Virus record (IMG/VR): IMGVR_UViG_2526164613_000023 | Source: a virus | Taxonomy: Duplodnaviria > Heunggongvirae > Uroviricota > Caudoviricetes | DNA: 35,309 nt | Direction: 5' to 3' (one strand) | In this document: positions 63-24,087 of the stretch, piece by piece | Layout of the letters: each line of letters starts with the position of its first letter | Position numbering within the stretch: position 1 is the stretch's first letter | Notes under the pieces: model-generated | What the model was told of the DNA's origin: nothing | Seen by the model: only the letters and a program-made list of their open reading frames with translations | Database searches by the model: none | Position numbers and translations under genes: made by a program

Positions 63-83
63 AAAAAAGGCCGCAGAGCGGCC
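63..83 (-). terminator. Putative Rho-independent terminator closing the leftward int-linked operon
   Basis: Hairpin GGCCGC-aga-GCGGCC at 69-83 with an adjacent A6 run on the plus strand, which reads as a T-tract after the hairpin on the minus strand; sits downstream of the minus-strand ORF ending at 193. Confidence 0.45.
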
Positions 84-192: not shown

Positions 193-735
193 TCAGCCAA
201 CAAATTTTGCAATGAAATACGTAGCCGCCGCTGTAAATAGCGAAGTAAAGATGGCTATGCACACAGGTATAATGATGCCACTCAACCGCCACTTCGTATT
301 ATCATCAACTTTGTCAAACCGCCGATTCATCTCATCCATAATCTTGTCAAAGCGTTTATCCATCGCTTCGGCAATCTCACCCTTCAGGCTGTTAATGTCT
401 GATTTGATCTGCTCTTTCAGGTGAGCTGTATCAGATTTAAGCTCACCTTTCAGATTCGCAATATCGCATTTAAGATCACCTTTCAGATGAGCAATGTCTG
501 CTTTGAGCTCACCTTTCACCTCACCAACATCGGCTTTGGTTGAGAGGTTTGTAGTGCGTTCAGCAAGCGTCGCAAGGTCGTTTCTTGTTAGCGATAAATC
601 ACCTTCGAGCCGCTCAATTCGCCTTTCAAGTTTATCTGACATTCCGCCTCCACTATCACCGCCTCCCCCACCGAAAGAGTTGCCAATGTCCTCACGAATA
701 AGGGTTATGCCATGCTCACTTTTAGCATATGCCAC
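193..735 (-). CDS. Tail-anchored coiled-coil membrane protein with five tandem 11-residue repeats; function unknown
   Basis: 180-aa ORF; Gly-rich linker GGGGGDSGGG; five 11-aa repeats (…LKGELK…/…LKGDLK… pattern) encoded by 33-bp tandem repeats around 370-534; single C-terminal hydrophobic segment IIIPVCIAIFTSLFTAAATYFIAKFVG; start abuts the stop of the upstream ORF. Confidence 0.6.
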   Translation of the reverse strand: MAYAKSEHGITLIREDIGNSFGGGGGDSGGGMSDKLERRIERLEGDLSLTRNDLATLAERTTNLSTKADVGEVKGELKADIAHLKGDLKCDIANLKGELKSDTAHLKEQIKSDINSLKGEIAEAMDKRFDKIMDEMNRRFDKVDDNTKWRLSGIIIPVCIAIFTSLFTAAATYFIAKFVG

Positions 736-1149
736 TCAGATTCCCTCCCAAACTATATATCCTTTGTCTCTTGCCCAACAAACAACTGTGTGGGCTGTAT
801 ATGTGGATGTGAAGCCGCAATAAGAACATGACACTTCATACCGAGTATTGTAGATGTTAATGGGCTCGTTCTCCTTGTGTATGGGAGTGACATATTCCCA
901 ATCATTTGAATCATCATAATCATCAAGTTCAGGGTCTGTGCCGTGAACAACCGTATGTGGAATAAACAAATCTGGGCGCCCACACGAGAGACAAGAGATT
1001 CTGGCTCCTCTATCTTTAAGGAATTGAATAAATAATTTGGGCGAAATCTGTTGCAGAACCTGCAAATGCCCACGTTCACTATCATTAAGAGACCTGTCTG
1101 CATATGGAAAATCATCAAATTTAAGAGGCTTCATATAAGGCATCTCCAA
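736..1149 (-). CDS. Hypothetical Cys-rich (zinc-ribbon-like) protein, int-linked cargo
   Basis: 137-aa ORF with CxxC…CxxC spacing (CLSCG … CSYCG); start overlaps the 3' end of int and its stop abuts the next ORF, suggesting translational coupling; AT-richer than the int gene. Confidence 0.5.
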   Translation of the reverse strand: MEMPYMKPLKFDDFPYADRSLNDSERGHLQVLQQISPKLFIQFLKDRGARISCLSCGRPDLFIPHTVVHGTDPELDDYDDSNDWEYVTPIHKENEPINIYNTRYEVSCSYCGFTSTYTAHTVVCWARDKGYIVWEGI

Positions 1150-2113
1150 GGGGATTAAATCTCACCGCATCCTGCAGGTAATCCGGCGCAAGATGGGCAT
1201 AAATCATCGTTGTCTGAATCTTTGCGTGCCCCAGAATTTTCTGGAGCGTCAGAATATTGCCGCCGTTCATCATGAAATGACTGGCGAAGGTGTGGCGCAG
1301 CGCATGAACAGCCTGGCCGTCAGGAACATCAGGTGCGACCGTTTTGATGACATCGCGAACCAATGGATAATCCAGCGTCGGAAACACCAGTTTCCCGCCC
1401 CGTTTTTTGATCTTTTCAAACAGGCTTTCAGAAATAGGAACGGTACGGTTTTTGCTGTTTTTCGTTTTTGAAAAAGTGATTCGACAATGAAGAACACGGC
1501 GCTGCTCCAGTACCGCTACCTCGCCCCATCGCGCCCCGGTCGACAGAAGGATTTCGACAGCCAGCCGTTCATCGGGATTTTCAGCCAGTGCATCCAGCAA
1601 CTGAACACATTCAGACTTACTCAGATATCCCATTTCGCGCTCGTTAACCTTCATTCCTTTAAGGCCTTGAACGGGGTTATCGTTAAGAAAATGGCCGGAT
1701 GAGATGAGTGCGGTAAACATCGCGCTTAACGCCCCAATCTCTCGATTTATGGTGCTGGGCTGTATCCCCTGCTCTATCCTGGACACACGTAGCTCGGTGA
1801 GCATCGTTGTATTAAGTTTATGCACGCATGGGTCATCCATTGCCTCACTCAAGCGCAGCAATTTAAGGCGCGTGTTATGCCCTGACTTCATTAGCTGGCC
1901 GTGGTATTTCCACCACAAGTCAATAAGCACTGACAGAGGACGGCGATCAATAGAGTTTCCTTTCCACTCATTGTTATGCTGTTGCGCCAGCACCCACCGC
2001 TCATATAAAACTGCATCCGATTTCGTTTTAAATTTTTTGCGAATGCGTTTGCCTTTACGCCCCTCAGGGCGCATGTCAAGAAGATACCCTCCCGGAATTG
2101 ATTTTATGCTCAT
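1121..2113 (-). CDS. int: Tyrosine integrase, P2 Int-like
   Basis: Translation aligns along its length with P2 Int from memory (…GRKGKRIRKKF…, …HALRHTFASHFMMNGGNILTLQKILGH…TMIYAHLAPDYLQDA…); start chosen at the internal Met MSIKSIP (2113) by alignment to the P2 Int N-terminus; the ORF-track start at 2263 is probably too long. Confidence 0.9.
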   Translation of the reverse strand: MSIKSIPGGYLLDMRPEGRKGKRIRKKFKTKSDAVLYERWVLAQQHNNEWKGNSIDRRPLSVLIDLWWKYHGQLMKSGHNTRLKLLRLSEAMDDPCVHKLNTTMLTELRVSRIEQGIQPSTINREIGALSAMFTALISSGHFLNDNPVQGLKGMKVNEREMGYLSKSECVQLLDALAENPDERLAVEILLSTGARWGEVAVLEQRRVLHCRITFSKTKNSKNRTVPISESLFEKIKKRGGKLVFPTLDYPLVRDVIKTVAPDVPDGQAVHALRHTFASHFMMNGGNILTLQKILGHAKIQTTMIYAHLAPDYLQDAVRFNPLGDALYEAS

Positions 2114-2162: not shown

Positions 2163-2474
2163 TTAGCCGGGCTGTGTACCAGTCTTGCGGGATTTTTGAG
2201 AAGACGATGTGTTTTCTGGCCCATCAGGAGAGAGAGAGGGACTGATCTGCCCGGCAGCCTCATTTGTTTTTCCCGTCATAAGCCATATAGTGTATTTTTC
2301 GAAATCCTTAGAATTAATTACGCGATCAACAACGCTTAAACCAACCTCTCTTTTACCGCTCTCATAATTCTTTATAGTTCCGAGATTTATCCCAGTAACA
2401 TCAGCAAACTCAGCTTGAGTTAACCCTTCACTTTTCCGTATCTCTTTCAGTTTTTTTTCGTACCCACTTGACAT
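2163..2474 (-). CDS. C: Immunity repressor, P2 C-like (HTH)
   Basis: 103-aa ORF; HTH segment LTQAEFADVTGINLGTIKNYESG and C-terminal GQISPSL…SQKSRKTG resemble P2 C as recalled; GGAG RBS before the ATG; divergent from the rightward early genes. Confidence 0.8.
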   Translation of the reverse strand: MSSGYEKKLKEIRKSEGLTQAEFADVTGINLGTIKNYESGKREVGLSVVDRVINSKDFEKYTIWLMTGKTNEAAGQISPSLSPDGPENTSSSQKSRKTGTQPG

Positions 2475-4895: not shown

Positions 4896-7718
4896 ATGAC
4901 GGCAGAGTACATCAGGGACTGGCAACAACCGCGCCACGCAGTGGGGCGTGAAGGAACGGGGATCCCCGCTCCTGAATCCGCGCTTTCCTCCTGGCTGGAT
5001 GCCTACCGGGCAGAGAACGAACGCCGCCAGGAAATGGCTGATGCGGCGTTTTCCGCCACGCCGCTGGGCAACCTGATTAATAAAAGCCTGGACGCACAGG
5101 AAAAACAGGACAAAACCATCACACTGGCAGGAGACGCCAGAAAACAGGCACGTGGCGCGGTGGATGAAGCCATGGCCTCGCTGCGCCTGCTGCCGTCCTA
5201 TCTGCGCGATCCGCTTATTCGCCACCTCTCCTTCCTGCGCAAAAAACAGGAAGCCGATCGTCAGAAAGGAAAAAACGCCAGGCAGGCAGAACGCTATGCG
5301 CGTGGGACCCTGCGCAAAATATTCGAACGTCTGGAGCGCACCGATCACCGCTGGGTGACACCGGGTTATCGCTCCCTTGCCGGACGCGAACGCCTGGACG
5401 ATTTGCTTTACCTGCCGCAGCTCAACAAACACCAGATACAGACGCTGGCCACCATGACGGCGGCGATGTTCAGCAGCACCTTCGAAAAACTCTGCGATGG
5501 CTTTGGCGCGACCGATGGCGAGCTGACCATGGATGTAACCATGAAGGCGCATCAGATGCTGGCCCGCATGGCGTTACACCTGCATGCCATGCCTCCACAT
5601 TATGACGCACTGACAACAGACAAAGACCGGAGGAACGAACCGGACACGGAGCTGCTGCCGGGTGCAATCCTTCGCCTGACCTGTGCGGAATGGTGGAAAC
5701 GCAAACTGTGGCTGTTACGTTGCGAGTGGCGGGAAGAACAACTCCGCGCCGCCTGTCTGGTTTCCAGAAAAACATCACCCTATCTGAGCCAGGACGCGTT
5801 AAGCGAGTTTCGCGCACAGCGCGAGAAAACACGCGATTTCCTGAAAAGTTTCATGCTGGAAAATGAAGACGGGTTCACGATTGATCTCGAGACGGTGTAT
5901 TACGCGGGAGTAAGTAACCCGGTTCACCGTAAAGCAGAAATGATGGCCACCATGAAGGGGCTGGAACTTCTGGCCGAAGCCCGTGGCGACAAAGCGGTGT
6001 TTCTGACTGTCACCTGCCCGTCAAAATACCACGCCACAACGGAGAACGGTCATCCGAATCCCAAATGGAACGGGGCCACAATGCGCGACTCCAGCGATTA
6101 CCTGGTTAACACGTTTTTTGCGGCGGTCCGCAAAAAACTGAACCGCGACGGCCTGCGCTGGTATGGCATCCGCACGGTGGAGCCTCATCATGACGGCACC
6201 GTGCACTGGCATATGATGGTCTTTGCACATCCGGAAGAAATCGACACCATTGTGTCCCATACCCGCGATATTGCGATTCAGGAAGACCGCCACGAGCTGG
6301 GCAATGATATTACTCCGCGCTTTAAGGTGGAGTATGTCGACGGCTCAAAAGGCACGCCAACCAGCTACATCGCCACCTACATCGGAAAGAACCTGGACAG
6401 CCGCGCCGTGGATGGCATCGACCCGAAAACGGGCAAGCCACGCGTGGACCACGAAACCGGAAAATCAATGGCCGAGAGCGTGGAACGCGCCATCGGCTGG
6501 GCGCGTCTTCACCGCATCCGCCAGTTCCAGTTCCTTGGTATCCCCTCCCGTCAGGTATGGCGTGAACTCCGCCGCCTTGCCAGTCAGATGGCCCGCAACC
6601 CGGAAGGTCCACAACGTCTGGAAAATGACGCAATGGATGCGGTACTCGCTGCCGCTGATGCCGGGTGTTTTGCCACCTACATTGAGAAACAGGGTGGCGT
6701 ACTTGTTCCACGCAAAGACTACCTGATTCGCACAGCCTACGACCTCGCAGATGAGCTGAACGATTACGGCGAACAGAGTGTACAGATTTACGGGATCTGG
6801 TCACCACTCATCGGGGAATCCTCCCGTGTGTGCACGCACCCGGATAACTGGAAGCTGGTAAGACGTAAACCGGAACAGGAAGGTAGCGCCCACGAAAATG
6901 GTTTTGACCTTCAGGGCGGCCCTGCCGCCCCTTGGACTCGTGGCAATAACTGTCCCCGTGTACAAGAAACGGACAACAACGGGACAGAACAGCCGGAAGA
7001 ACGGCCAGCACCGTGGCCGCAGCTTCCTGACGGCGTTGACGTGAATGAATGGATGCGCTCACTGAAACGGCACGAACGCCGGGCGCTGATGCGTTCGCTG
7101 CGTGACAAACAGGCAAAAAACAGCAGTGATGAAATGCAGAACTGGACACAGAGCCGCAAACAGCCACAGCCTTTGCCTGATAACCACGAGTTACTCGCTA
7201 AAGAATGGCGGGAGTCTGCTGAATCTCTCGGCCTGCATATTGGTGAACAGCAGATGCAGCACCTGTTACGGGGCGGCAGTCTGTACGTTGACGGCAGCAT
7301 CATTGCACCGCAGGGATTTGAAATTGTACGCAAACCGGATACCCGCCCGGACAGCCGAATCACGCAGCTCTGGCAACGCCTGAGTCGTAATCACGGCGTA
7401 AGCAGCACGGAGATCCGCCATAACCCGGTCGCCAGCTATCTGGAACAACTAGAGGCATCAGACCCTGAAGCCGCCGCACGCCTGGCATCCACACTTCAGC
7501 AAGACCAGAACACCATGAAAACACCCGTTACCGTACTTTCTGACATGCTGCGCGCCATCCGCGACGCAGAGCACGCACAGAGAATCAGTGAAACAACTGA
7601 ACGCGCCCGCCGCAAAGCAGACCTGCTGCGGGGTGGCCTGAGCAGTGGAAACAAAAAACAGACAAAAACGGGATTCACAAATCCCGTAAATGAGCAAAAA
7701 ACGCGCCGCGATATATGA
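4896..7718 (+). CDS. A: Rolling-circle replication initiator / endonuclease, P2 gpA-like
   Basis: 940-aa ORF; segments TVHWHMMVFAHPEE and YIATYIGKNLDSRAVDG match the P2 A motifs as recalled; long C-terminal extension relative to P2 A (761 aa). Confidence 0.85.
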   Translation: MTAEYIRDWQQPRHAVGREGTGIPAPESALSSWLDAYRAENERRQEMADAAFSATPLGNLINKSLDAQEKQDKTITLAGDARKQARGAVDEAMASLRLLPSYLRDPLIRHLSFLRKKQEADRQKGKNARQAERYARGTLRKIFERLERTDHRWVTPGYRSLAGRERLDDLLYLPQLNKHQIQTLATMTAAMFSSTFEKLCDGFGATDGELTMDVTMKAHQMLARMALHLHAMPPHYDALTTDKDRRNEPDTELLPGAILRLTCAEWWKRKLWLLRCEWREEQLRAACLVSRKTSPYLSQDALSEFRAQREKTRDFLKSFMLENEDGFTIDLETVYYAGVSNPVHRKAEMMATMKGLELLAEARGDKAVFLTVTCPSKYHATTENGHPNPKWNGATMRDSSDYLVNTFFAAVRKKLNRDGLRWYGIRTVEPHHDGTVHWHMMVFAHPEEIDTIVSHTRDIAIQEDRHELGNDITPRFKVEYVDGSKGTPTSYIATYIGKNLDSRAVDGIDPKTGKPRVDHETGKSMAESVERAIGWARLHRIRQFQFLGIPSRQVWRELRRLASQMARNPEGPQRLENDAMDAVLAAADAGCFATYIEKQGGVLVPRKDYLIRTAYDLADELNDYGEQSVQIYGIWSPLIGESSRVCTHPDNWKLVRRKPEQEGSAHENGFDLQGGPAAPWTRGNNCPRVQETDNNGTEQPEERPAPWPQLPDGVDVNEWMRSLKRHERRALMRSLRDKQAKNSSDEMQNWTQSRKQPQPLPDNHELLAKEWRESAESLGLHIGEQQMQHLLRGGSLYVDGSIIAPQGFEIVRKPDTRPDSRITQLWQRLSRNHGVSSTEIRHNPVASYLEQLEASDPEAAARLASTLQQDQNTMKTPVTVLSDMLRAIRDAEHAQRISETTERARRKADLLRGGLSSGNKKQTKTGFTNPVNEQKTRRDI

Positions 7719-7770
7719 AGCGCGCACAAAACAGGCGAAAACGGGATTTAAAAATCCCGTAAACGATTAA
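7652..7770. repeat. Two copies of a ~45-bp direct repeat, each with a 20-bp palindromic hairpin core
   Basis: Copy 1 at about 7652-7697 (core ACGGGATTcacaAATCCCGT) inside the last codons of gene A; copy 2 at about 7726-7770 (core ACGGGATTtaaaAATCCCGT) between A and parM. Confidence 0.7.
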
Positions 7771-21927: not shown

Positions 21928-24087
21928 ATGAGTACCACAACACGAAAATTTAAAACCATTATCACTGATACTGGTGCCAAAAAATTAGCTCAGGCAGCCG
22001 CGCCAGATGGTAATCCTGTCCGCCTGACTCACATGGCCGTGGGCGACGGTGGCGGCACGTTGCCCACACCAGACAGTAAGCAGACCCGTCTGGTGCATGA
22101 GGTGTGGCGACATACTGTTAATCGCGTCATCCTGGACGCAACACATCAGAACCGCATTATTGCGGAGCTGGTTATTCCTCCTGAAACGGGCGGATTCTGG
22201 ATCCGGGAAATTGGTGTATTTGATGAGCACGGCGATTTGATCGCGGTGGGCAATACTGCCGAAAGTTACAAACCAACCGTTGCCGAAGGATCCGGACGTG
22301 CACAAACATTTCGCACCATTCTGACCGTATCCAGCACTGCCACCGTGGCGCTTACCGTGGATAACACCATGGTTATGGCCACAGTGGATTACGTGAATGA
22401 CAAACTGAAAGAACATGAACAGTCACGACGTCACCCGGACGCCTCGCTGACCGCAAAAGGCTTTGTTCAACTCAGTAGCGCCACCAACAGCACGTCTGAA
22501 GCACTGGCCGCAACGCCGAAAGCGGTCAAGGCAGCCTATGACCTTGCTATCGGGAAATATACCGCACAGGACGCCACTACAGCGCGGAAAGGACTTGTCC
22601 AGCTCAGTAGCGCCACCAACAGCGATTCAGAAACGCTGGCGGCAACACCAAAGGCGGTAAAGGCAACATATGACCTTGCTAACGGGAAATATACTGCGCA
22701 GGATGCCACCACAGCGCGGAAAGGCCTTGTCCAGCTCAGTAGCGCCACCAACAGCACGTCTGAAGCACTGGCCGCAACACCGAAAGCGGTAAAGACAGCA
22801 TATGACCTTGCTAACGGGAAATATACCGCTCAGGACGCTACGACAGCACAAAAAGGGATTGTCCAGCTAAGCAGCGCGACTAACAGCACATCTGAAACGC
22901 TTGCCGCGACACCGAAAGCAGTGAAAGCAGCTAATGACAATGCGAATGGTCGGGTACCTTCTGCCCGTAAGGTGAATGGTAAGGCGCTTTCAGCGGATAT
23001 TACACTGACGCCGAAAGATATTGGTACGCTTAACTCAACAACTATGTCATTCAGCGGTGGTGCTGGTTGGTTCAAATTAGCAACGGTAACCATGCCGCAG
23101 GCGAGTTCTGTTGTTTCAATTACGTTGATTGGTGGCGCGGGATTTAACGTGGAGTCACCTCAACAGGCAGGTATATCTGAACTTGTTCTTCGTGCGGGAA
23201 ATGGAAATCCAAAAGGTCTTACTGGTGCGTTATGGCGACGGACATCGGTTGGATTTACTAATTTTGCATGGGTGAATACATCCGGTGATACCTATGATGT
23301 TTATGTTGAAATAGGTAATTACGCCACAGGTGTTAATATTCAATGGGATTATACCAGTAACGCCAGCGTAACGATTCATACTTCACCAGCATATTCTGCT
23401 AATAAGCCGGAAGGATTAACGGACGGTTCTGTTTATTCGCTGTATATTTCGCCTCATGAACTTTATCCGGTTGGCGCACCGATCCCTTGGCCATCAGATA
23501 CCGTTCCGTCTGGTTATGCCCTGATGCAGGGGCAGACTTTTGACAAATCTGCATACCCGAAACTTGCAGCCGCTTATCCGTCAGGCGTGATCCCTGATAT
23601 GCGTGGCTGGACGATTAAGGGCAAGCCCGCCAGTGGTCGTGCCGTATTGTCTCAGGAACAGGACGGCATTAAATCGCACACCCACAGCGCCAGCGTATCC
23701 AGTACGGATTTGGGTACGAAAACCACATCGTCGTTTGATTACGGGACGAAAACAACCTCACTATTTGACTATGGGACCAAAACTACCAGTAACGCCGGGA
23801 GTCACACGCATTCAATACCAACATCAGATGGTGCAAACCAGGGGGGGGAAATTCCACTGACATCTGGGCGTCTGGCAACTCAATATACATCAGCAACAAC
23901 AGGTTCCTCTGGCTCACATTCTCATACTGTAGGTATTGTTTCTCATCAGCACACTGTCGGTATTGGTGCACACACGCACTCGGTTGCGATTGGCTCACAT
24001 GGACACACCATCACCGTTAACGCTGCTGGTAACGCGGAAAACACCGTCAAAAACATCGCATTTAACTATATTGTGAGGCTTGCATGA
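21928..24087 (+). CDS. H: Tail fibre protein, P2 gpH-like, with tandem fibre repeats and a His-rich HxH tip
   Basis: 719 aa; four 44-aa (132-bp) tandem repeats of the KG(F/L/I)VQLSSATNS…TPKAVK…YDLA…[11 protein letters not shown] type; C-terminal SHSHT…SHQHT…AHTHS…SHGHT motifs. Confidence 0.9.
22456..22950 (+). repeat. About four copies of a 132-bp in-frame tandem repeat inside the tail fibre gene
   Basis: Repeat units start at 22456, 22588, 22720 and 22852; the last copy diverges. Confidence 0.85.

Follow-up and report, generated by a model that had tools for sequence, protein, structure and literature searches.

Membrane proteins of the DUF1640/CCDC90 family, among them MCUR1, CCDC90B and various prokaryotic members, combine a single C-terminal transmembrane (TM) helix with a long parallel coiled-coil stalk, which opens with a β-layer motif of the form [aliphatic]-A-T-K-[polar]-[DE] (Hartmann et al., PMC4786415). 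A similar build is found in the Bdr proteins of Borrelia, which are inner-membrane-associated, encoded by cp32 prophages and made during vertebrate infection, with neither a function nor a phage phenotype assigned to them (PMC10016077). Temperate phages, on the other side, express in the lysogen genes such as rexA/rexB of λ and old, tin and fun of P2, either from the immunity operon or beside it. The three P2 morons are all exclusion genes. Here we analyze a pair of adjacent genes at positions 193–1134 of the IMG/VR record IMGVR_UViG_2526164613_000023 (Caudoviricetes), the whole stretch of 35,309 nucleotides being hereafter referred to as the window. We are confident that this pair, which encodes a zinc-ribbon-like protein and a tail-anchored stalk protein of the DUF1640/Bdr kind, constitutes a real, conserved and uncharacterized two-gene accessory module of temperate enterobacterial phages.

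The sequence of the window matches Escherichia coli O55:H7 strain DEC5B (NZ_CP038389.1) in reverse-complement orientation; in this strain a P2-like prophage is integrated between btuC and ihfA. The elements of immediate relevance are the following, with lengths in amino acids (aa) and gene calls of the Prokaryotic Genome Annotation Pipeline abbreviated as PGAP:

59–83, unstranded: att core, attL copy, AAAGAAAAAAGGCCGCAGAGCGGCC, also the terminator hairpin of the ihfA-btuC intergenic region
193–735, minus strand: tail-anchored coiled-coil protein, 180 aa from GTG 735, DUF1640/CCDC90/Bdr-like, phrog_9415 (E = 9e-15)
736–1134, minus strand: predicted zinc-ribbon protein, 132 aa from ATG 1134, phrog_4293; the mechanical open reading frame (ORF; 137 aa) reaches TTG 1149
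1121–2074, minus strand: tyrosine integrase, int (317 aa by PGAP), its last 14 nucleotides overlapping the zinc-ribbon gene
2163–2474, minus strand: P2 C-type helix-turn-helix repressor, first gene of the leftward lysogenic operon (Pfam HTH_3, E = 2e-10, and annotation)

The two genes recur together. Of 17 informative loci from phages and viruses, all 17 have a phrog_4293 gene followed at once by a gene encoding an N-terminal peptide, a Gly linker, a coiled coil and a TM segment, and so do all the bacterial loci inspected (in E. coli, Salmonella, Klebsiella, Providencia and others) except L036, where the zinc-ribbon gene stands alone. Co-occurrence across genomes had been proposed as a check on the pair by a first-pass annotation of this DNA. 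The pair is conserved in about 30 loci belonging to P2-like, 186-like, lambdoid and P22-like phages, and the module is present in 39 of 5426 complete E. coli genomes (0.7%), always on the chromosome. It had been supposed that the pair does not belong to the P2 backbone, and this is supported by tblastn, in which the zinc-ribbon protein hit only 4 of 50,697 phage records, none of them named P2 or 186. The literature searched contained no description of the obligatory pairing with a zinc-ribbon protein, of the Gly-tethered exchangeable N-terminal peptide or of the stepwise stalk detailed below.

The boundaries of the prophage place the pair within it. Genomes with an empty site, including MG1655, show homology only with bases 1–83 of the window, ending precisely at 83, and the 25-mer AAAGAAAAAAGGCCGCAGAGCGGCC (59–83) is present again beside ihfA, at the other end of the prophage (attR); because of this second copy at the opposite end, AAAGAAAAAAGGCCGCAGAGCGGCC is identified as the att core. 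Host homology that stops at 83 and an att core duplicated at attR define the pair as prophage cargo lying between int and attL, as initially claimed. The explanation that they are ordinary host genes flanking attL, which the first-pass annotation had itself named as the outcome that would undo its claim, is ruled out by the empty-site genomes, since these match bases 1–83 only. The same annotation had let the operon of the pair end in a hairpin terminator. The hairpin is real, having on the minus strand a GC-rich stem (83..69) followed by a T run, 110 nucleotides 3' of the stop codon of the stalk gene; its owner, however, is the host, for it is the ihfA terminator, which doubles as the 25-bp att core of the phage. 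Both genes overlap or abut int and one another, as previously noted, and because of this arrangement their co-transcription with C and int, also proposed before, is very likely. On the minus strand, no terminator-like site was detected between C and the att-core hairpin. The GC content of the pair (0.41–0.48) is slightly below that of int and is not informative.

The first gene of the pair has been omitted by PGAP in DEC5B and several sister genomes, and is called in its 132-aa form in sister loci. ATG 1134 is the likelier start (MKPLKF...), with a GGAG 9 nucleotides upstream and the gene then overlapping the end of int, the stop codon of which lies at 1121–1123. The product is acidic (pI 5.1) and soluble, and matches phrog_4293 with E = 1.8e-29, a family with no assigned function. 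It belongs to no family of Pfam, NCBIfam or PADLOC (the best zinc-ribbon profile of Pfam has E = 0.12) and neither PDB nor BFVD contains a relative of its fold. Of its five cysteines, C48, C51, C103 and C106 are invariant in 28 homologues (CxxCG...CxxCG), whereas C119 is not conserved. The four invariant residues form two knuckles:

982–993, minus strand: first Cys knuckle, C48-L-S-C51, then Gly; invariant in 28 homologues
817–828, minus strand: second Cys knuckle, C103-S-Y-C106, then Gly; invariant in 28 homologues

The AlphaFold 2 (AF2) model of the protein, which is confident (predicted local distance difference test, pLDDT, 83), contains two N-terminal helices, a four-stranded sheet resembling that of zinc ribbons (strands 60–63, 79–82, 97–103 and 109–113) and a C-terminal helix. 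Two CxxC knuckles located on β-hairpins, the generic trait of zinc ribbons, are thus present in the model, and the Cys knuckles together with the predicted fold support the designation of the protein as zinc-ribbon-like that was given at first sight; its description as Cys-rich was overstated, for it has 5 Cys in 132 aa, four of them invariant. An exhaustive profile search retrieved 68 representative clusters of proteins of 83–180 aa plus one protein of 1170 aa, and the 17 representatives that were read share the motif (I/V)(T/S)PxxFxxFL...CxxCG...Y.V.CxxCG. In O157:H7 and other Shiga toxin-producing E. coli (STEC), the same slot is occupied by a homologue of 166 aa that has 25% identity and falls in the same PHROG. 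The zinc-ribbon part of the module is fast-evolving and patchily distributed, as is typical of accessory or defense cargo.

The second gene directly adjoins the first, its GTG (733–735) following the TGA stop of the zinc-ribbon gene (736–738). PGAP has placed the start of this stalk gene at ATG 642, 31 codons later, producing a protein of 149 aa. Comparison of the loci indicates that the long form from GTG 735 is probably the correct one and that the PGAP call is too short, because the extension stays open and in frame across divergent loci; this holds for six such loci despite indels of 3n and low identity. Moreover, L004 has an ATG at the position equivalent to GTG 735, the stalk start abuts or overlaps the upstream stop in every locus compared (TGAGTG, TAAAATG, ATGGGTAA), and independent gene callers also report long forms. 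The two ORFs happen to be in the same frame in the window, and a fusion produced by readthrough of the TGA was accordingly considered; it is ruled out by L004 and the O157-type loci (TAAAATG, ATGGGTAA), in which the frames differ, and stop-codon readthrough is therefore not a conserved feature. (Of note, a Met directly follows the Gly-rich linker in every homologue examined, distant ones included [window 640–672, minus strand], and the Gly codons preceding this Met32 necessarily make a GGAGG-like Shine-Dalgarno sequence. Met32, which is the start chosen by PGAP, could conceivably serve as a second start for a short isoform devoid of the N-terminal peptide; additional selection for a Shine-Dalgarno sequence before Met32 was not detected, since synonymous recodings of the Gly run pair equally well with the anti-Shine-Dalgarno sequence.)

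Along the stalk protein, the following segments can be distinguished:

673–735, minus strand: variable N-terminal peptide (N-peptide), aa 1–21, disordered in the AF2 model, co-segregating with the zinc-ribbon gene
643–672, minus strand: Gly-rich linker GGGGGDSGGG, aa 22–31, followed by the invariant Met32 (640–642); kept in all homologues
547–642, minus strand: N-terminal coiled-coil segment, aa 32–63, MSDKLERRIERLEGDL..., AF2 helix 32–64
529–546, minus strand: β-layer-type motif L-S-T-K-A-D, aa 64–69, hallmark of DUF1640 stalks; T66, K67 and D69 invariant
367–531, minus strand: five 11-residue (33-bp) repeats, aa 69–123; 2–7 copies in homologues
301–366, minus strand: two 11-residue units of a second type, AMDKRFDKIMD and EMNRRFDKVDD, aa 124–145; one of them missing in some homologues
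211–279, minus strand: C-terminal TM anchor, about aa 153–175, with a 5-residue tail (hydropathy and AF2)

The architecture recognized by the first-pass annotation, namely a Gly-rich linker, five tandem 11-aa repeats and a single C-terminal TM helix, is confirmed in all its parts, with the addition of the two MDKRFD-type units. Residues 1–26 have pLDDT values below 50. The N-terminal coil that follows the linker contains the conserved residues L36, E37, R38, R39, L43 and E44, and the predicted helix breaks at 65–66, exactly at LSTKAD. Tandem Repeats Finder reports for the repeat DNA a period of 33 bp with 3.2–3.8 copies (score 126), and the hydrophobic periodicity of the stalk peaks at 3.67 residues (11/3). 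The membrane anchor is indicated by a Kyte-Doolittle peak of 2.19 (19-residue window, aa 153–171) and by an AF2 helix spanning 145–179. (In locus L006 of E. coli 300709, positions 233–1886, an insertion of the IS3 family has cut the 3' end of the stalk gene, leaving unrelated residues in place of the TM anchor.)

The number of repeats varies among homologues, as it had been suggested to verify, and does so in discrete steps. In close homologues the segment from TKAD to MDKRFD measures 23, 34, 45, 56, 67 or 78 residues, corresponding to between 2 and 7 units, with each step adding exactly 11 residues. This stepwise repeat number explains why PGAP gives different lengths across strains: the loci examined have proteins of 134, 145 and 149 aa, and homologues with NCBI names measure 123 and 156 aa. 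Short relatives of 95–109 aa in other phages have none of these repeats but retain an N-peptide, a Gly linker, a coil, an ATKxD-like motif and an anchor.

Judged by these sequence traits, the stalk protein belongs to the DUF1640/CCDC90/Bdr superfamily. The window protein itself scores below threshold with PF07798 (DUF1640/CCDC90-like; 27.8 bits vs a cut-off of 33.5), and homologues of 80–94% identity have precomputed PF07798 matches and carry the name DUF1640/CCDC90 at NCBI. It has the single C-terminal TM helix of the family and a long, presumably parallel coiled-coil stalk that opens with the β-layer motif in the form L64-S-T-K-A-D69, with T66, K67 and D69 shared by all of 19 homologues. The best profile matches in PDB are the trimeric β-layer coiled coils 6h9l, 7o92 and 5apz, of which 6h9l and 7o92 are deposited with 3 chains; the 11-residue repeats of 6h9l (ATKEDIEALRK) align in register with the stalk, and repeats of the ELKxDIxxLK type are shared also by the distant bacterial DUF1640 members P0047 and P0051. 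Two properties set the window protein apart from its family, namely the disordered N-peptide on a Gly tether, in place of the other N-terminal regions of the family, and the obligatory zinc-ribbon partner gene, a pairing that is not described for DUF1640.

The likeness to Bdr proteins resides in the repeats. Borrelia Bdr sequences are recovered by tblastn with E = 1e-5 to 1e-6 (pairwise BLASTP, E = 3e-14), and their 11-residue consensus VKSDLKSDIMS is nearly the same as LKGELKSDTAH of the window. Both groups are borne by prophages or plasmids, cp32 prophages and linear plasmids in the case of Borrelia, and have a central repeat array of variable length, here of 2–7 units that can be aligned with the repeats of B. 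miyamotoi Bdr, followed by a C-terminal hydrophobic anchor. The BLASTP alignment covers only residues 46–143, namely the repeat region, without similarity at the N-terminus, and the N-terminal domain of Bdr and its Borrelia plasmid context find no counterpart in the window; Bdr proteins, which come from a different phylum, lack the Gly linker and the N-peptide, and the Bdr locus inspected (L033) has no zinc-ribbon partner upstream. DUF1640 genes are found also in the Liberibacter phages SC1/SC2 and in Vibrio and Col-type plasmids. The stalk protein is, in sum, a new member of a known family without assigned function.

The two genes do not evolve as a single block. Between the window and the O157 locus, identity amounts to 28% for the zinc-ribbon protein, 29% for the N-peptide and 92% for the stalk core, whereas the corresponding values between loci L039 and L040 are 94, 89 and 48%. 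Across loci, Mantel correlation of the zinc ribbon is r = 0.52 (p = 2e-4) with the N-peptide and r = 0.32 with the core. According to these values, the zinc-ribbon gene is swapped as one unit with the N-peptide, and the stalk recombines independently. Such a joint exchange would be expected if the N-peptide docks its cognate zinc-ribbon protein.

The pair also occupies recurrent positions. P2-like prophages in E. coli, Salmonella and Klebsiella have it in the int-att slot, and a 186-like element (L035) has it between int and an S24-type CI repressor. In Enterobacter phage ENT1 (48 kb) it lies directly 3' of an S24 repressor resembling cI, which is the rexAB position. In a P22-like phage it is found, together with a lipoprotein gene, between the tailspike and the ejection protein gp16, the interval corresponding to the immI/sieA region of P22, and in Providencia it adjoins ogr. 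All of these are lysogeny or moron slots, where temperate phages keep genes that are expressed in the lysogen. The int-att interval of P2-like phages is a minor defense hotspot, accounting for 3% of P2 systems (PMC13586616), and its layout is reproduced in the window by the att core (59–83), the cargo (193–1134) and int (1121–2074); the cI-int slot is a hotspot in K139-like phages (PMC9122126).

On the basis of position and architecture, we tentatively favor the view that the pair may be a lysogen-expressed, membrane-tethered module of exclusion or abortive infection. According to this view, it would be a moron of temperate enterobacterial phages expressed in the lysogen as the tail of the repressor-integrase transcript, with translational coupling ensuring that both proteins are made in step. 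The 180-aa protein would have its C-terminal helix in the inner membrane and its N-terminus in the cytoplasm, forming a parallel, probably trimeric coiled-coil stalk of the DUF1640 type, the length of which would be set by the number of 11-residue repeats. Each chain would present a disordered N-peptide at the end of a flexible Gly tether, and this peptide would dock one acidic zinc-ribbon protein, roughly 10–20 nm off the membrane. In one version, the zinc ribbon would recognize a phage component and the membrane part execute the response, an abortive infection comparable to that of RexA/RexB; in the other, exclusion would result from the tethered complex blocking an early step of superinfection at the membrane. 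In both cases the exchangeable zinc-ribbon cassette would supply the specificity. The sequences show how the genes are built and coupled, that they are conserved as a pair, the order of the domains, the variation in repeats, the family to which the stalk belongs and the places taken in phage genomes, whereas we infer the oligomeric state, the binding of the peptide to the zinc ribbon, the expression and the anti-phage activity.

Parallels with described systems extend to general organization. Like RexA/RexB and like old, tin and fun, the pair would be expressed in the lysogen, within the immunity operon or next to it, and it would share with systems of the RexA/RexB type the combination of a soluble and an inner-membrane component. 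Conversely, there is no similarity of sequence or fold between the pair and either Rex or the P2 morons, and RexB is polytopic rather than tail-anchored. Several other points weigh against a role in exclusion or abortive infection. No homology links the pair to any defense system in PADLOC-DB 2.0, where the zinc-ribbon protein matches 0 families and the stalk hits ZorA, LmuB and LeoBC only through low-complexity coiled-coil sequence, at E values of 3e-5 or weaker. The position in a hotspot is circumstantial, considering that int-att holds only the 3% of P2 defense systems mentioned above (PMC13586616). Relatives in DUF1640, such as Borrelia bdr, Liberibacter SC1 gp26 and a gene on a Vibrio plasmid, are without the zinc-ribbon partner and have no known role, and the eukaryotic members MCUR1 and CCDC90B are scaffolds, not effectors. 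Finally, adjacency alone is also expected to make the zinc-ribbon gene and the N-peptide co-segregate, provided that recombination breaks occur within the linker and coil, which are conserved.

The bolder proposition that the pair is an unrecognized two-component anti-phage system, with the trimeric stalk acting as a tether or effector of adjustable length and the zinc-ribbon protein as a sensor docked on the N-peptide, seems to us doubtful as a whole. If it were true, prokaryotic DUF1640 proteins would gain their first function, and the Bdr family of Borrelia a hypothesis that can be tested; any role for the module would indeed assign a role to prokaryotic DUF1640/CCDC90 proteins and suggest experiments on Bdr, which has been without a function for 25 years. 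Hotspots of temperate phages have yielded many new immune systems, and PADLOC-DB 2.0 does not contain this module. Its architecture is unusual and easily manipulated, consisting of an exchangeable, sensor-like cassette, a tether, a stalk varying in steps of 11 residues (about 1.6 nm) and a single-helix anchor. The analysis also corrects the current annotation, in that the zinc-ribbon gene is missing from the RefSeq entry of DEC5B and the start of the stalk gene is probably 31 codons late.

Among the alternatives to exclusion or abortive infection, the one that survives best, while still improbable, is lysogenic conversion of host physiology, whereby the stalk would be a membrane scaffold recruiting the zinc-ribbon protein or a host partner and thus altering stress tolerance, envelope function or virulence. 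Scaffolds that could serve as analogues are MCUR1 in mitochondria and ElaB/YqjD in E. coli. The DUF1640 members characterized to date are scaffolds (PMC7519068), the inner-membrane-associated Bdr proteins are made in vertebrate infection and have no assigned phage phenotype (PMC10016077), and the carriers of the module include many lineages of STEC and enteropathogenic E. coli. A benefit to the host is nonetheless difficult to reconcile with the presence of the pair on four unrelated backbones of temperate phages, in their usual immunity or exclusion slots, and the rarity of the module (0.7% of E. coli genomes) combined with its high mosaicism suggests an arms race instead.

Slightly less probable again is an addiction module resembling toxin-antitoxin systems, in which the membrane protein would be a latent toxin restrained by the zinc-ribbon protein and the prophage would be stabilized. 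The coupled operon of two small proteins with the soluble partner first fits such a module, as does the zinc-ribbon gene left alone in L036, a pattern tolerated for antitoxins, and the same prophage has hok/gef at its other end. But no toxin-antitoxin family in Pfam, NCBIfam or PADLOC is matched, relatives of the membrane protein occur alone on plasmids and phages and are thus not obviously toxic, and a stalk protein of variable length, between 95 and 190 aa, is unlike known small membrane toxins.

An accessory function in lysis or induction during the lytic cycle of the prophage itself, of the XhlA or holin-regulator type, is very unlikely. The stalk protein has in common with XhlA, to which it was likened initially, its small size and tail-anchored topology, with helices in the cytoplasm and a TM segment at the C-terminus, and it shows weak matches to XhlA (PF10779, 15.4 bits vs a cut-off of 34.7; Pfam E = 0.021), to a PHROG labeled hemolysin (E = 0.0011) and to PHROGs of spanins and holins (E about 0.006–0.02). 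However, all of these matches fall far short of the family thresholds and are confined to coiled-coil or TM segments, the β-layer motif and 11-residue repeats point to DUF1640 instead, and the genes are co-oriented with the lysogenic C-int operon and overlap it beside att, far from the lysis cassette, directly following the repressor in ENT1 and the 186-like phage.

Some observations concern the neighborhood of the pair in this and other phages. An inverted repeat with 12-bp arms (2502–2529) separates the C repressor gene from the early operon that diverges from it; labeled terminator-like in our scan, it is probably the operator. In another P2-like prophage (L030/L031, 2111–2947), a gene of 278 aa without assigned function and with an N-terminal hydrophobic region lies between int and the pair, which shows that there is room for more than one cargo in the int-att slot. 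The lipoprotein gene of the P22-like locus (L037, 3638–4108) is situated directly downstream of the pair in the region equivalent to immI/sieA; it encodes a predicted lipoprotein of 156 aa with the lipobox LIGC, and may be another exclusion-type moron.

Other features of the window are distant from the pair. An ORF of 355 aa (33449–34516, minus strand) is placed between late gene D (31947–33179) and ogr, in a stretch that is covered by DEC5B only among the 5426 E. coli genomes; its match to Pfam DUF3800 is sub-threshold (18.5 vs 21 bits) and it has no PADLOC match. The site looks like a second, strain-specific cargo slot. At the right end of the prophage, between ogr and attR/ihfA, a toxin gene of the hok/gef family is located at about 35169–35309 and just past the end of the window. 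Three direct repeats with a spacing of 132 bp and 83–85% identity are found at 22456–22949, presumably within a tail gene, and two direct repeats of 42 nucleotides, 73 nucleotides apart, are found at 7652–7766, each with a small GGGATT...AATCCC hairpin.

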